Virus record (IMG/VR): IMGVR_UViG_3300042892_004166
Coordinates: 1-15,096 of that record
Source of the DNA: a virus
Lineage: Duplodnaviria > Heunggongvirae > Uroviricota > Caudoviricetes
DNA: 15,096 bases
Reading direction: 5' to 3' (one strand)
Shown here: positions 10,193 to 15,096 of the stretch, piece after piece
Position numbering within the stretch: the stretch's first letter is position 1
Layout of the letters: every line of letters starts with the position of its first letter
Notes under the pieces: generated by a model
Databases searched by the model: none
Seen by the model: the letters and a program-made list of their open reading frames with translations, nothing else
Told to the model about the DNA's origin: nothing
Program-made: the position numbers and the translations under genes

Positions 10193-12481
10193 ATGGCACT
10201 AAGTCCGCAATTATTAAATTTTAAGAGCTCAGGAGTTTATAGACTTGAGTTTGATAAATCTCAGACAGCAAATATAAATGTCGAGACTCTTAGATTAATG
10301 GTAGGTCACTCTAAAAAAGGTCCTTACAACACACCGGTTTTGATTGATTCAGTTGAAACTCTTGTAAATGTGTTTGGAAACATTGATAAAAGTTTAGAAA
10401 AAAAGGGAATGTTTTTCCACAGATCTTGTATCGAAGCACTTTCAAGAGGTCCTATATTAGCACTAAATCTTGAGCAATTTGTTCCTGGAGATATTGCATC
10501 TTACCAAAGTCCAGTAACCTGTGGAGGTGCTGGAGCAGTTAACATTACATCAGATAGTGGTAATTCAGGATACGCAGATTTCTTTGATAATGATAAATTC
10601 ATGGTTCCTTCAGATGCTGAAACATTAGCAACTATAGTTCCTGATAACGATCACGTCTTAAACTTTGTTAATATTAAACAAGAACCAATCACAATCATCG
10701 TAAGACAGGCTCAAGAAGTTAAAGAATTTGACTTAACTGCAAGAGAATGGTATGGTGTTGGAAATGTTCCAGAATACTTAAATGATTTCGATAAAATGTC
10801 AGATTTTATGGTTGATGTATTTGTATTCAAAGGAGAATTCGATGCTGCTGCAATGATAAATGACCCAATCTATTCTGCTTATTTTACAGCAGACGGTTTA
10901 GATAAAACAAAACTTGCACAATTTGCAAACCTTAGACAGGTTAGTTTAATTGCACAATACACAGGTTCTATCTTACCAGGATTTAAAGACCTTGAAGGTA
11001 GAAACTTATATATTGAATCAACTATTAACGCAGAAGCTAGAAGAACTGGTTTATTCTGTGCAGTTAATGAAGATGCAGTTATGGACGAACAAGGAACTCA
11101 AGTTGATTTTGTAGGACATGTTCATAATAGTGCTAATTCTTATGAATTACTATCTCACTATGTTCCTGCAGGTGATAGAGAAACTATATTTGATTTTATA
11201 ACTGATGGCGCTACTATAGGAACTGACAATACATTAGGTAGTTCAAATTTCACTGTAACTTATACGACTGGAGATGAGCCTACAACATTCCCAATTACAG
11301 TTGGACAATACGTTGATTCTGAGAATCTTGGAACTAGACTTGCAAGAGTTAATAGAATTGCAAAAGCAATAGTTGGCGGAGATACTATTTTTACAGTCTA
11401 TACTGATGTAGTACCGGATTACCAAAGTAGAATTATTAAATCTTATGAATCAGCTTCTCTAGTTTATAAGACATTTGTATTACAAAAAGCAAATATAACT
11501 GGAAAAGAAATAAGCGACTATTTATCTGTTCTTTCTGGAGGTAATGGAATCTATGATGCCCTAATCGACAAAGACATTATTGATTTTAGATATGTTGTAG
11601 ATACTTTTACATCTTTTGATGTGAATGGTTTAAACAACAAACGCAATCTTTCTCAATTAGCAAAAGATAGACAAAATGCTGCCGCAATCTTAAATGCACC
11701 AACAATTGAAGATTTCAAAAAATCTACAGACCCATCTTTCACAGATGCAAATGGAGCTTTTGATACTGCTTATATTGCAGATGGTGGTAATCAAGATAAA
11801 AACCCTACTAAAATATATGCTCTACCAAGTATAAATGAAGGTGCAAATTATGCATTCTACTACGGACCTGGTTTAATTGTAAGCGACAATGGAAAAGACA
11901 TTATTGTTCCTCCAGCTGCTTATGTTGCTAACAACTACATCGACAAATACACGAACGCCCTTCCATGGTCAATCGTTGCTGGTCCAAGAAGAGGAGTTGT
12001 ATCTGGTACAAACGTTAAAGGAGTTGAATATTCTTTTGACAAAGGTGATAGAGATATTTTAGAGCCATTTGGTTACAATCCAATTGTATTCCAAAGAGGA
12101 ACAGGTTTAACTATCTTAGGTAATAAAACTGCGCAACAATCTATTAAATCTGCACTTTCTTCTGCTCACGTAAGAGAGGTACTTATTTACATCGAAGATG
12201 GTATGGCAAATATTCTTAAAGATTACGTATTTGAATTTAACACTGCACAAACAAGACTTGAAATCAAGACCCTTGCAGATTCATTCTTACAAGGTGTTAA
12301 ACAAGATAATGGTATTTATGAGTTTAAAAATGTAATGGACTCTACGAATAACACTAATGAGATTATCGATAACAATATGGGTATAATTGATACTTACGTA
12401 GAACCAGTTAAAGGTTTAGAAATTGTAGTTCATAGAACAACAGTTTTAAATACTGGAGAAATTCAATCAGGTAACCTATAA
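10193..12481 (+). CDS. gp18: Contractile tail sheath protein (T4 gp18-like)
   Basis: N-terminal SSGVYRLEFDKS and GHSKKGPYNTPVLI; C-terminal sheath motifs VPPAAYV, PWSIVAGPRRGVV, RDILEPFGYNPIV, GNKT, SSAHVRE, FEFN. Confidence 0.95.
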   Translation: MALSPQLLNFKSSGVYRLEFDKSQTANINVETLRLMVGHSKKGPYNTPVLIDSVETLVNVFGNIDKSLEKKGMFFHRSCIEALSRGPILALNLEQFVPGDIASYQSPVTCGGAGAVNITSDSGNSGYADFFDNDKFMVPSDAETLATIVPDNDHVLNFVNIKQEPITIIVRQAQEVKEFDLTAREWYGVGNVPEYLNDFDKMSDFMVDVFVFKGEFDAAAMINDPIYSAYFTADGLDKTKLAQFANLRQVSLIAQYTGSILPGFKDLEGRNLYIESTINAEARRTGLFCAVNEDAVMDEQGTQVDFVGHVHNSANSYELLSHYVPAGDRETIFDFITDGATIGTDNTLGSSNFTVTYTTGDEPTTFPITVGQYVDSENLGTRLARVNRIAKAIVGGDTIFTVYTDVVPDYQSRIIKSYESASLVYKTFVLQKANITGKEISDYLSVLSGGNGIYDALIDKDIIDFRYVVDTFTSFDVNGLNNKRNLSQLAKDRQNAAAILNAPTIEDFKKSTDPSFTDANGAFDTAYIADGGNQDKNPTKIYALPSINEGANYAFYYGPGLIVSDNGKDIIVPPAAYVANNYIDKYTNALPWSIVAGPRRGVVSGTNVKGVEYSFDKGDRDILEPFGYNPIVFQRGTGLTILGNKTAQQSIKSALSSAHVREVLIYIEDGMANILKDYVFEFNTAQTRLEIKTLADSFLQGVKQDNGIYEFKNVMDSTNNTNEIIDNNMGIIDTYVEPVKGLEIVVHRTTVLNTGEIQSGNL

Positions 12482-12514: not shown

Positions 12515-13069
12515 ATGGGATTACCACACTATAATCAAGACCAAACGTCTAGAAAAGGTAGAAATTTTGAACCAATCCAGCCTAACCTGTTTGAAGTTAC
12601 AATACTTCCACCAGCTGGTGTTGCAGATGCTCCACTTTTATTACAGCACGTTAATTCAATCTCAGGATTAGAATTATATAAAGACATTGCTGCAGTAGAA
12701 CAAAAATACAAATGGGTTACTAGATCGTTCGCTGGTATGCCTGATGGAACTGCAGTTGATGTAACCATTAACTTCTCATTAAACTTAAATGAAGCAAATC
12801 AAGCTTATTTATACAAAGCAATGAGACAATGGTATAACTTAAGATACGATCCGAATACTGGTACAATGGGTCTTAAAAAAGATTACGTAGGTACTATTGT
12901 TATCGTACAGTTCAACAGAGCTGGAGATATTTATAGAACAGTAACTTTAGAAGATTGCCAAATTTCTTCAGCTTTAGGTTTTACTACTGAATTAAATTAC
13001 GATTCTAAGGATGCTGCTACATTAGAAGTAGGATGGAGATGTGATGCTTGGAAAGAAGTTCTAGCATAA
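12515..13069 (+). CDS. gp19: Tail tube protein (T4 gp19-like)
   Basis: 184 aa directly after the sheath. NLFEVTI, AMRQWYN, YVGTIVIVQFNRAG, TVTLEDC and terminal WRCDAW fit the gp19-type tube family. Confidence 0.88.
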   Translation: MGLPHYNQDQTSRKGRNFEPIQPNLFEVTILPPAGVADAPLLLQHVNSISGLELYKDIAAVEQKYKWVTRSFAGMPDGTAVDVTINFSLNLNEANQAYLYKAMRQWYNLRYDPNTGTMGLKKDYVGTIVIVQFNRAGDIYRTVTLEDCQISSALGFTTELNYDSKDAATLEVGWRCDAWKEVLA

Positions 13070-13118: not shown

Positions 13119-13156
13119 GAAACAAAAACATAATATAATGATAATATAATATATTG
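13117..13156 (+). promoter_or_regulatory. Candidate sigma70-like promoter with a direct-repeat operator upstream of the RHH gene
   Basis: TTGAAA (13117-13122)-N17-GATAAT (13140-13145). ATAATATAAT repeated at 13130-13139 and 13141-13150 (11-bp period). Palindrome AATATATT at 13148-13155. No GATATATAA here. Confidence 0.35.
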
Positions 13157-13372
13157 ATGGATAAACTAACCAAAAAGTTACAGGTCTTATTATCAGAAGA
13201 TGAAGTAACTTTAATTAATCGAATAATACTTACTGAAGCTATCGAAACAGGACAAAGACCAATTTCAATCTCAGCATTTATTAGAGATGTTATAAGAACC
13301 GAAATAGACAAGAGAGCAGATACAATAACCAAATTTAATAAAATCGACATTAAAAAACTTAAAAACAAATAA
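13157..13372 (+). CDS. Ribbon-helix-helix (Arc/CopG/MetJ-like) DNA-binding protein
   Basis: Alternating strand KKLQVLL, helix SEDEVTLINRIILTEA, turn, helix SISAFIRDVIRTEI. ATG at 13157 preferred over the track's TTG at 13154. Confidence 0.65.
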   Translation: MDKLTKKLQVLLSEDEVTLINRIILTEAIETGQRPISISAFIRDVIRTEIDKRADTITKFNKIDIKKLKNK

Positions 13373-13375
13373 TTT

Positions 13376-14350
13376 ATGAATACAGAAAATGATTCAAATC
13401 TAGAAGAACAATATAAAAATATGGTTCAGTCTGTAGAAAACCAAGAGGTTTATGTAGAAGTTCCGGAACCAGCACAAGAGGCACCCTTAAATCTAGGAAA
13501 AGTTAACATGCAAAGATTTACTGGAGATAAAGCTGAAGATGCAGATTTTCACCTAGGTTACCACACAATTCCATTACTTTCATTACCTTCAGGTGGTATG
13601 TTTTACCCGGAAGGAACCGAACTTTCAATTAGATCTGCTAAAGTTGCAGAAGTTAGACATTTTTCAACGATTGATGAGACCAACGTGTTAGATATCGATG
13701 AAAAACTGAATACAATAGTAGATTCATGTACAAGAATTACATGTTCAATAAAAAGATTATCTTATAAAGACCTTTTAGAAGAGGACCGTTTTTACGTTAT
13801 TCTTTCTATTAGAGACTTAACTTTTCCAGAGCCAGAATCAAACTTAAAAATTGAGCACACTAGCAAAAAAGGAGAGAAGCATGATATTGAAATTAAAAAA
13901 GATTATTTTCAATACTTTAAAATTCCAACAGAACTTGACAAATATTATGATTCTGAAACAAAATCATTTCAAGTTGAAACGCGTTCATTTGGTACTATTG
14001 AAATGAAACCACCTGCTATCGGAGTTATGCAAAAAATTACTGCATATATTAAAGAAAAGCAGCAAAAAGGACTTAAAGTTGACCAGTCAGTACTTCAAAT
14101 CATTCCATACTTACACAAAGATTGGAGAACTTTTAATGACAAAACAATTTTTGAATTTGAAATTGAATTAAACGGTTGGACAAATAAAAAATACAATCTG
14201 GTTTATACGTTGGCTGAAAAAATGAAAGTCGGAATTCAACCAAACATGCTAGTACAATTAGGGGACGAGGAGGAAGAGGTTCCCATCAGTTTTCGCGACG
14301 GAATCAAATCTCTTTTCATTGTTCAAGATATCGCTGGAGAACTTCTTTAA
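13376..14350 (+). CDS. gp26: T4 gp26-like baseplate hub / tail assembly chaperone ('G-like')
   Basis: LSLPSGGMFYP, IRSAKVAEV, DLLEEDRFYVILSIRDLT resemble gp26-like proteins. Lies between tail tube and tape measure, the canonical chaperone slot. Confidence 0.65.
   Translation: MNTENDSNLEEQYKNMVQSVENQEVYVEVPEPAQEAPLNLGKVNMQRFTGDKAEDADFHLGYHTIPLLSLPSGGMFYPEGTELSIRSAKVAEVRHFSTIDETNVLDIDEKLNTIVDSCTRITCSIKRLSYKDLLEEDRFYVILSIRDLTFPEPESNLKIEHTSKKGEKHDIEIKKDYFQYFKIPTELDKYYDSETKSFQVETRSFGTIEMKPPAIGVMQKITAYIKEKQQKGLKVDQSVLQIIPYLHKDWRTFNDKTIFEFEIELNGWTNKKYNLVYTLAEKMKVGIQPNMLVQLGDEEEEVPISFRDGIKSLFIVQDIAGELL
14262..14350 (+). other. Putative programmed +1 ribosomal frameshift window
   Basis: The +1 frame is open from 14262 to the stop at 14565-14567. 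Three P-site re-pairing sites in the zero frame: TTT_CGC (14291-14296), CTT_TTC (14312-14317), CTT_TAA (14345-14350). GC is 40/90 here versus 16/60 at 14101-14160. Confidence 0.55.
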
Positions 14351-14567
14351 AACGAAGTTTCAAATATATCTTAAACTCCATACGCAACCATCGGAACTTG
14401 AGAGAATGGAATACTATGAATTCCATTATCTTGTTAAAGACTTGATAGAGCATATTAAGGAGGAGAATAAACAGAACACTAATCAAAATGATGCAGCATC
14501 AGGAATGATGGGTAATATGAAAATGCCTAACATGAAAATGCCAAATATTAGCATGCCGAAAATGTAA
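14319..14567 (+). CDS. gp51: T4 gp51-like ORF ('T-like'), probably expressed as a frameshift extension of 13376-14350
   Basis: SLENFFKTKF...SELERMEYYEF...LIEHIKEENK matches my recollection of gp51 (LENYYKTNF...TELENM.PWE...L.EEN). The only start ahead of the conserved part is a TTG inside the upstream gene; the first ATG (14406) would delete most of the conserved segment. Confidence 0.65.
   Translation: MFKISLENFFKTKFQIYLKLHTQPSELERMEYYEFHYLVKDLIEHIKEENKQNTNQNDAASGMMGNMKMPNMKMPNISMPKM
14514..14564 (+). repeat. 15-bp imperfect tandem repeat encoding NMKMP-NMKMP-NISMP-KM
   Basis: AATATGAAAATGCCT (14514), AACATGAAAATGCCA (14529), AATATTAGCATGCCG (14544), AAAATG (14559). Confidence 0.8.
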
Positions 14568-14570
14568 AAC

Positions 14571-14597
14571 AAAGGGTCCCTAATCGGGCCCTTTTTT
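14571..14597 (+). terminator. Rho-independent terminator closing the RHH-gp26-gp51 cassette
   Basis: Stem AAAGGGTCC (14571-14579) / GGGCCCTTT (14586-14594) with one G-U pair, T6 at 14592-14597, 3 nt after the stop. Confidence 0.85.
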
Positions 14598-14602
14598 ATT
14601 TG

Positions 14603-14611
14603 GATATATAA
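14603..14611 (+). promoter_or_regulatory. Putative late promoter (GATATATAA)
   Basis: Exact motif 5 nt after the terminator T-run, 47 nt before GTG 14650. Confidence 0.7.
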
Positions 14612-14649
14612 CAAAGATAAAACCTTTATCCCAAAAAAATCGACAATAG

Positions 14650-15096
14650 GTGACTCAAAGCAATAAACAAATTGGATTACTAACAAGCCCATTAAATAAA
14701 ATTCAAGACGCTACCGAAGCAACTGCGGTTATTCTTAATAGAATCGCTGAAGTTGTTCTTAACGGAACGAGTAGTAAATCCGGAGAGACCACTTCAGATG
14801 AGCTTAAAAAACAAACAACAATACTTACCGATATTCGAAGCATCTTAAGAGAGCAGAATAAAGTATTAGCATCAGGCGCTGGAGCAAAAGGTGGCGCTGG
14901 AGGAGGAATGTTCTCCCCAATGTCGGCTAAAGATGTTGGATTAACAGCGCTAATGATAGTTGGAGTTGCTGGAGCAATTGTTGGAGCAGCTGCAATATTT
15001 ACATTAGTTCCAGTTATTTCAATAGGACAATTACTTACAGTACTTGCAGTTGCAGGTATTTTTGCACTTATTGCACCTACATTTGTTAAAATAGCA
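14650..15096 (+). CDS. Probable tail tape-measure protein, N-terminal 149 codons, truncated by the window and absent from the ORF track
   Basis: GTG directly after an in-frame TAG, open to the window end: MTQSNKQIGLLTSPLNKIQDATEAT...SGAGAKGGAGGGMFSPM...LMIVGVAGAIVGAAAIFTLVPVISIGQLLTVLAVAGIFALIAPTFVKIA. Helical N-terminus, Gly/Ala linker, hydrophobic helices; follows the chaperone pair. Confidence 0.7.
   Translation, partial: MTQSNKQIGLLTSPLNKIQDATEATAVILNRIAEVVLNGTSSKSGETTSDELKKQTTILTDIRSILREQNKVLASGAGAKGGAGGGMFSPMSAKDVGLTALMIVGVAGAIVGAAAIFTLVPVISIGQLLTVLAVAGIFALIAPTFVKIA

Follow-up and report, generated by a model that had tools for sequence, protein, structure and literature searches.

How is a reading frame expressed when it overlaps the end of the preceding gene and has no good start codon of its own? 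The question is raised by a stretch of phage DNA of 15,096 nucleotides (the window), which is the start of a 117-kb IMG/VR record (IMGVR_UViG_3300042892_004166) from an uncultured phage with 33-35% G+C and 29 tRNA genes. Here an open reading frame (ORF) of 324 codons, ORF-A, which belongs to the family of the T4 hub chaperones gp26 and gp51, ends with a TAA stop at 14348. A second ORF, which resembles the C-terminal part of gp51, lies in the +1 frame of ORF-A; it is open from 14262 to 14567, directly after a TAG at 14259-14261, overlaps ORF-A by 89 nt and offers TTG 14319 as the only ATG, GTG or TTG between 14262 and 14400. The arrangement of the two frames is far beyond chance. We suggest, with a probability of roughly 70%, that ORF-A and the overlapping +1 ORF are one recoded gene, in which a +1 slip at UUU_CGC produces a 396-aa fusion (306 + 90 residues) beside the 324-aa product (Table 1).

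An initial annotation, made from the letters of the window, had proposed such a fusion, and its description of the frames, of the missing start and of the sizes of both products was correct. Its three +1-compatible sites are located where it had placed them: AGT TTT CGC at 14288-14296, TCT CTT TTC at 14309-14317 and CTT TAA at 14345-14350, the last preceded by GGAGAA. It had also described the overlap as rich in G+C, and this is so relative to the flanks, although the counts are 39/90 against 20/60 and 22/60 and not 40/90 against 16/60 as it had given. The CGC that it had pointed out is a rare codon and accounts for 4 of the 153 Arg codons in the window and for 25 of 26,563 codons genome-wide (0.94 per 1000), which makes it the second-rarest sense codon. 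The TTT_CGC at 14291 is the sole in-frame example among the 26,563 codons counted. In addition, TTT followed by a pyrimidine is avoided genome-wide (247 of 937 TTT codons against 241 of 390 TTC codons in 82 long ORFs; odds ratio 0.22, p = 2e-33), a deficit consistent with avoidance of the +1-prone UUU_Y.

The +1 relation is conserved well beyond the window. In all 13 relatives found in phage records (PAU, PTm1, pT24, MA9V-1/2, MaF61, Lak and the LR7565xx records), the small ORF lies in the +1 frame, remains open over 62-146 nt before the stop of ORF-A and lacks a start that is conserved. The same overlap and the same missing start recur in about 165 IMG/VR contigs of three clades: 79 contigs of the window clade (61-95% protein identity), 80 of the LR745206 (L006) clade and 5 of the LR756500 (L001) clade. 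A search for related loci with the PAU locus as query recovered only PAU itself. The ORF-A stop always lies 11 codons past a frame-0 motif, F-x-x-G-(I/L)-x-x-(L/I)-F, with an offset of a few codons in MaF61. The +1 frame carries the motif FS(L/V)F..(L/W)EN, which in LR756501 and Lak sits beyond the frame-0 stop and which recurs in the Pelagibacter phage Mosig; it is therefore a genuine motif of a translated protein and does not simply arise from the coding of frame 0.

We considered several trivial sources for this arrangement. Sequencing error was rejected on the strength of the roughly 165 independent contigs with an identical frame relation. The -1 frame was rejected as coding, being open by chance in the window, with a length that varies and is not conserved in the relatives. 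Transcriptional slippage in the window was set aside, the T runs there being only 4 long. Lak relatives are known for TAG recoding; no such recoding is needed here because the late genes of the window are uninterrupted under code 11.

A few loci depart from the common layout. In LR756501 (L007:3758-3950) and Lak-C1 (L004:3824-4100), an insertion has shifted the +1 motif downstream of the frame-0 stop and partly undone the two-frame overlap, and in Lak-B5 the +1 frame is ended by a stop 18 codons past the frame-0 stop, where Lak-C1 reads on. LR756504 (L011:3680-3800) is without a site of the UUU_C or CUU_UUC type; instead, nine consecutive A follow the +1-frame stop immediately and the +1 frame contains an ATG, so that this relative may use a different route to the extension, through transcriptional slippage or a start of its own. 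Contig L014 (positions 1-860; JGI 3300000949; approximately 13760-14700 of the window) encodes a natural in-frame fusion of 234 aa (P0004); compared with the window, 109 nt are deleted, and ORF-A (...NKKYT) thereby runs directly into the +1 frame (NLFSLFK...). The L014 ORF begins near residue 130 of ORF-A, with just 21 nt between it and the contig end. The 49 nt past the junction (window 14305-14353) are 100% identical to the window, against 77% for the rest of the DNA, and the frame-0 tail of the window can be reached in L014 only by a -1 shift, with an A_AAA_AAA run just upstream.

The point at which the second frame begins was located by per-codon-position entropy, using 56 unique sequences of the window clade and 52 of the LR745206 clade. 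In the window clade, frame-0 third positions have an entropy of 0.9-1.7 bits up to the codon at 14288. The TTT at 14291-14293 and the C that follows it are invariant in both clades (the LR745206 clade reads TTT CCC), and it is exactly at this TTT_C that third-position entropy falls in both of these independent clades. The mean drops from 0.87 bits before the onset to 0.26 in the overlap in the window clade (p = 8e-6) and from 0.93 to 0.14 in the LR745206 clade (p = 9e-8), so that the suppression of synonymous variation for which the initial annotation had proposed a test is found in both. Between 14291 and 14311 the window clade conserves alternate +1 residues (F, T, S, L) as well as the frame-0 residues, whereas the LR745206 clade conserves nearly all the +1 residues between the sites UUU_C and CUU_UUC; the seven codons concerned have third-position entropies of 0.51 bits (p = 0.03) and 0.20 bits (p = 0.0016), respectively. 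From 14312 on, variation in the window clade moves to frame-0 first positions, which are the third positions of the +1 frame, and the +1 frame is therefore the dominant constraint from that point. The two-frame coding, which extends over 57 nt, and its onset are shown by computation, as are the conserved frame relation and the family membership described below.

Other relatives limit the entry point from the upstream side. A +1-frame stop lies two codons before the +1 Phe codon in L001, L047 and six loci of the LR756501 type; entry is therefore bounded to TTT or to the codon before it. The frame-0 residue after this Phe is P, R or Q among the relatives, and its codon always begins with C. In MA9V the first site is not UUU_C, the second reads UUU_CUA, and the +1 peptide upstream shows no conservation.

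Our proposal, in which the slippage, its precise position, how efficient it is and the role in assembly are inferred, is as follows. Most ribosomes would read ORF-A to the TAA at 14348 and give the 324-aa gp26-like chaperone. In a minority, tRNA-Phe on UUU 14291-14293 would re-pair in the +1 direction with UUC 14292-14294, so that the next codon read would be GCG (14295-14297) in place of the rare CGC. The shifted ribosomes would continue to 14567 and produce the 396-aa protein, with a gp26-like body and a C-terminal domain of the gp51 type. Both forms would then act together in tail or hub assembly in a ratio set by the slip, by analogy with T4 gp26 and gp51 and with lambda G and GT. UUU_Ynn is a +1-prone tetranucleotide in bacteria; the known cases of +1 shifting at UUU-pyrimidine include bacterial sites, Yersinia YopN-TyeA and influenza PA-X, whose shift cassette is UCC_UUU_CGU (PMC5009743). 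As in these cases, the P-site UUU would re-pair to UUC, and as in PA-X a CGN Arg codon comes next in the window; the host and the context are different, and relatives of the window have CCC, CAA, CCU or CGA after UUU.

Some observations weigh against a slip at UUU_CGC. The long ORFs of the genome contain 136 in-frame UUU_C, and the tetranucleotide therefore cannot act efficiently alone. We found no RNA stimulator, as folding of 14297-14376 and 14255-14360 gave predictions that do not surpass shuffled sequences (z = -1.0 and +0.4), and a GAGG-rich stretch upstream is not conserved in spacing. Because the phage encodes a tRNA-Arg(ACG), which is expected to read CGC, and because relatives carry common codons such as CAA after UUU, a starved (hungry) codon in the A-site is not a general feature of the locus. 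Lastly, homology puts the slip site of T4-like phages at CUU_UUC and not at UUU_CGC, a profile of T4-like fusions slightly favours a -2 junction at CUU_UUC, and L014 fuses the two frames without the +1 residues that lie between the two sites.

In the LR745206 clade (80 loci, L107-L186), the codons GAG GAG GTC, 87 to 79 nt before the ORF-A stop, show no synonymous variation. They contain GGAGGT, which is complementary to the anti-Shine-Dalgarno sequence, and stand 16 nt before TTT CCC. PAU, L001 and L188-L191 carry a similar G(G)GAGGTC at the same distance of 16 nt from TTT; the distance is 10 nt in the window, whose clade shows variation in these codons.

The rival that survives best accepts a real frameshift and moves it 21 nt further on to CUU_UUC, which we regard as unlikely. 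Two routes would lead there: a +1 move of peptidyl-tRNA-Leu from CUU to UUU, or a -2 move of tRNA-Phe from UUC to UUU, and for the window's own sequence a simultaneous -2 move of both tRNAs would re-pair perfectly (CUU to CUC, UUC to UUU). The site aligns with the U_UUU_UUC of nine T4-like phages in both frames, G-I-K-S-L-F with G-L-x-D-F-F in frame 0 and L-F with F-F after the shift; most lineages, though not Lak, pT24 or L188-L191, have a run of U at this position, the natural fusion in L014 joins just before it, and it is from here on that variation appears at frame-0 first positions. When the possible junctions were scored with the T4-like fusion profile, the -2 junction at CUU_UUC came highest (26.9 bits), followed by +1 at CUU_UUC (24.3), +1 at UUU_C (24.0), the shift at the stop (15.7) and ORF-A alone (10.7); the lead of 2.9 bits over UUU_C is, however, small. 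Several features stand against a shift at CUU_UUC: third positions are already frozen over the seven preceding codons in both clades, +1 residues are conserved there in the window and LR745206 clades, and no locus has a +1 stop between UUU_C and CUU_UUC. Moreover, the position is not slippery in Lak (AUA_UUC), pT24 (GUC_UUU) or L188-L191 (UUA_UUC), all of which keep UUU_C. The initial annotation had favoured these two sites jointly; of its three sites, UUU_CGC fits best, CUU_UUC is less probable and CUU_UAA is disfavoured. Given a frameshift, we would assign about 70% to UUU_CGC, a fifth to CUU_UUC and very little to CUU_UAA.

Improbable, and less so only than the last case below, is that the small ORF is a separate gene with no fusion at all, its translation beginning at TTG 14319 or restarting in a manner coupled to termination of ORF-A. 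Annotators do call small genes with ATG starts in PAU, MaF61, MA9V, PTm1 and pT24, the TTG exists in the window, and some T4-like phages have an ATG that overlaps the gp26 stop or lies just past it. The annotated starts, however, are at differing places and always after the conserved N-terminal motif of the +1 frame, and the position of TTG 14319 is TTA in L001 and L006. Constraint on the +1 frame begins 28 nt upstream of that TTG, the +1 relation is invariant, and both T4 gp51 and L014 are natural examples of the fused architecture. We consider a prfB-like +1 shift at CUU_UAA, helped by the GGAG just upstream, highly improbable, since the CUU-stop of the window clade, which follows GGAGAA at 6 nt, and the CUU_UAA that also ends ORF-A in the L001 clade give way to UCU_UAA in PAU and GAA_UAA in the L006 clade and are absent in MaF61 and pT24, since constraint on the +1 frame begins 57 nt before the stop, since such a shift would exclude the conserved +1 motif, a real peptide, from the fusion, and since its profile score is 15.7 bits against 24-27 for the other sites.

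Direct BLASTP of ORF-A or the +1 ORF against T4 gp26 and gp51 gave no match, so that profiles were needed to reveal the kinship. On its own, ORF-A has no Pfam match even at E 10, and its only PHROG match is phrog_36717, a family of unknown function. Its relatives, namely PAU gp93 and proteins of Lak megaphages, LR7565xx megaphages, PTm1, pT24, MA9V and MaF61, provide the link: PAU gp93 (33.9 bits) and the LR756500 protein (29.1 bits) exceed the cut-off of 24.5 bits for Pfam PF12322 (T4_baseplate), which covers residues 1-206 of T4 gp26 and 1-201 of T4 gp51. A profile of the ORF-A family matches the profile of gp26 and the gp51 N-terminal region with a hhalign probability of 97.4% (E 1e-11, 212 columns). 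The AlphaFold (AF2) model of ORF-A (pLDDT 77.8) matches baseplate hub subunit and hub assembly protein entries of BFVD with E 1e-10 to 1e-4 and TM 0.45-0.65, and AFDB clusters agree; all of these are predicted structures. The C-terminal family motif, CxxC followed by G-(I/L)-x-x-(F/L)-F, is found only in part: G-I-K-S-L-F stands at 14300-14317 in frame 0, but the CxxC is lost in the window clade (LGDEEEEV), while PAU, L001, L006, pT24 and MA9V keep it.

The +1 ORF matches phrog_634 ('baseplate hub assembly catalyst', E 1.9e-4), and the profile of its family matches the gp51 C-terminal family of T4-like phages (hhalign 94%, E 1.4e-7). It has the motif SLENFFK in common with the gp51-like -1 ORF of Mosig, and fused variants match the T4-like gp51 profile across the junction. 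From these profile relationships we conclude that ORF-A belongs, as a distant member, to the T4 gp26/gp51 family and that the +1 ORF carries the C-terminal domain of gp51. The labels gp26-like and gp51-like, which the initial annotation had given from the letters alone, are justified by the PF12322, hhalign, AF2-model and phrog_634 matches.

A possible connection to tail chaperones of known structure is seen in the core of ORF-A. When the model was compared by VIA-align with 48,161 solved chains, the top three were the HK97 tail assembly chaperone 2ob9, the entry 3fgx, and YqbN (3klu), a tail chaperone of the XkdN type, all of them on residues 52-162. The match of 2ob9 to residues 61-154 (Z 6.2, rmsd 3.4 over 76 residues) and those of 3fgx (Z 5.1) and 3klu (Z 5.0) have Z values in what the tool calls the common range. 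Foldseek found no match for the model in the PDB, 2ob9 reaching only E = 3, and a sequence search for solved structures related to ORF-A found none. As the Z values are in the common range and Foldseek has no PDB match, the fold link of the modelled core to solved tail assembly chaperones is suggestive only.

T4 itself offers a parallel to the proposed products. Both gp26 and gp51 are listed as baseplate hub assembly chaperones, and gp51, which is not in the particle, has been described as essential for assembly of the hub with a function that was not known (Leiman et al. 2010, PMC3004832). We find that residues 17-171 of T4 gp51 resemble gp26 (E 2e-6) and that the -1 fusion of Mosig aligns with T4 gp51 in a single high-scoring segment pair across the junction, with colinear C-terminal domains; T4 gp51 therefore looks like a 'GT' form that has become a gene of its own. 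The body of ORF-A belongs with gp26 (208 aa) and gp51 (249 aa), its extension corresponds to the C-terminal domain of gp51, and gp51, as a gp26-like domain plus extension, has the architecture predicted for the 396-aa product. Unlike the window, T4 has genes 26 and 51 as separate, divergently transcribed genes that need no recoding; unlike T4 gp26, ORF-A is longer and on its own falls below the Pfam model.

Several T4-like phages encode gp51 proteins that lack about 200 N-terminal residues ('short gp51'; Sullivan et al. 2010, PMC3037559). We examined nine such loci (Mosig, P-SSM2, S-WAM2, Syn33, Vibrio nt-1, phiM9, phiAS5, pf16 and ACP17). Every one of the nine gp26 genes ends with G-L-x-x-F-(F/L)-x-stop, coded by T_TTT_TT(C/G/T), and every gp51-like ORF lies in the -1 frame and begins at this heptamer, one or two codons before the gp26 stop; in phiAS5, a -1-frame stop stands directly before the heptamer. 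In several cyanophages an AGGGA-like stretch (a conserved Gly codon) is found 8-10 nt before the heptamer, as in dnaX. A tblastn search with the Mosig -1 ORF reached 623 phage records, and among the records listed the matches start at query residues 1-13, mostly under both gp26 and gp51 annotation. Like these cyano-, pelagi-, vibrio-, aeromonas- and rhizobiophages, the window has a pair of overlapping, homologous ORFs in which a slippery run occurs close to where the gp26-like frame ends, and the extensions have the motif FF/LF...SLE.(F/Y)(F/Y)K.NF in common. Unlike them, with their -1 relation at U_UUU_UUC, the window requires +1, has 57 nt of two-frame coding and probably uses UUU_C. Our literature search found no publication that reports a gp26-gp51 frameshift, either -1 or +1.

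The principle of a frameshifted tail chaperone is itself already known: lambda gpG and gpGT are a tail assembly chaperone pair whose frameshift is conserved (Xu, Hendrix & Duda 2004; reviewed in PMC5009743). The window resembles lambda in having a short and a predicted frameshift-extended product from overlapping ORFs after the tube gene, with a frame relation conserved across divergent phages; as in G/GT-type pairs generally, the relation (here +1) holds in every locus examined, and UUU_C is conserved. The status of T4 gp26 and gp51 as assembly chaperones, with gp51 absent from the particle, is a further parallel. The window differs from lambda in the direction of the predicted shift (+1 in place of -1) and shows no homology to it in sequence, and its downstream gene is a tape measure candidate by position only. 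The analogy to G and T drawn in the initial annotation gains support from the composition of T4 gp51 from a gp26-like domain and an extension, and from the weak fold match; the candidate tape measure gene has no family match. A +1 frameshift has been predicted for the tail chaperone of the haloarchaeal myovirus HSTV-2 (cited in PMC5009743); it too would need +1 instead of -1, although its proteins and host domain are unrelated to those of the window.

Very probably, then, the locus holds a strongly conserved feature of the recoding type, whose novelty, as judged from sequence comparison, would be the +1 direction, the UUU_C site and the long two-frame overlap in the gp26/gp51 family. On balance we lean towards a broader reading, in which, throughout the T4 superfamily and in Lak/PAU-like jumbo phages and megaphages, contractile tails have their equivalent of lambda G/GT in the gp26/gp51 hub chaperones: an ancient pair, made by a -1 shift at U_UUU_UUC in T4-like marine phages, switched to +1 at UUU_C in one megaphage-rich lineage and split into two genes in T-even phages. 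If this is true, it would explain the 'catalytic' action of gp51 and the truncated look of cyanophage gp51: fusion to gp26 by frameshift would account for the essential role of T4 gp51 and its absence from the particle, and for the missing N-terminus of the cyanophage protein. It would also link the hub chaperones of T4 to the principle seen in G/GT, where recoding sets the ratio of two proteins. The window would add a lineage in which the pair needs a +1 shift, one that includes the Lak megaphages of human and animal guts, and with it a natural system in which to study a change in the direction of programmed frameshifting that leaves both products in place. In annotation terms, about 100 codons that are now called an orphan small gene, or missed, would be corrected.

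The recoded gene stands in a late morphogenesis block with terminase, sheath (10193-12481) and tail tube genes upstream. The initial annotation had spoken of a T4-like phage; the source is a Lak/PAU-like jumbo phage and not a close relative of T4.

Table 1. Coordinates of the frameshift region and of neighbouring features in the window
Feature	Coordinates	Strand	Basis or remark
Tail tube gene	12515..13069	+	phrog_32623, phrog_45, phrog_3629 (annotated tail tube); upstream of ORF-A in the same late unit
ORF-A, probable gp26-like chaperone, 324 aa, standard-decoding 'G' form	13376..14350	+	phrog_36717; profile and AF2 matches
Most probable shift site, UUU_CGC	14291..14296	+	Invariant TTT_C; entropy onset; upstream +1 stops; known +1-prone UUU_Ynn
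Two-frame coding stretch (frame-0 tail of ORF-A and +1 frame of extension)	14292..14350	+	Entropy tables
+1-frame extension, gp51-like C-terminal domain ('T' part), 90 codons and stop	14295..14567	+	phrog_634; gp51 C-terminal profile
Alternative shift site, CUU_UUC	14312..14317	+	Aligns with U_UUU_UUC heptamer of T4-like phages in both frames
prfB-like site CUU_UAA at ORF-A stop, disfavoured	14345..14350	+	Window clade and LR756500 (L001) clade only
Terminator-like hairpin and T6, end of unit	14574..14597	+	Read from sequence
Start of downstream 896-aa gene, which runs to 17340 of the record	14650..15096	+	Candidate tape measure by position and size only

The 896-aa gene downstream of the hairpin has no PHROG or Pfam family match. 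Nor does a 72-aa ORF with a TTG start (13154-13372), which occupies the 300-nt gap between the tube gene and ORF-A. Beyond the window, at 35112-35201 of the same record and in a cluster of 26 tRNA genes, ARAGORN predicts a 90-nt class II tRNA, '?(Gln|Ser)'. It was considered as a factor in the shift and rejected; as no in-frame UCA is present in 14288-14350, it is not linked to the frameshift. With its 8-nt anticodon loop and four-base anticodon ttga, this tRNA could be a tRNA-Ser(UGA) or a quadruplet reader.

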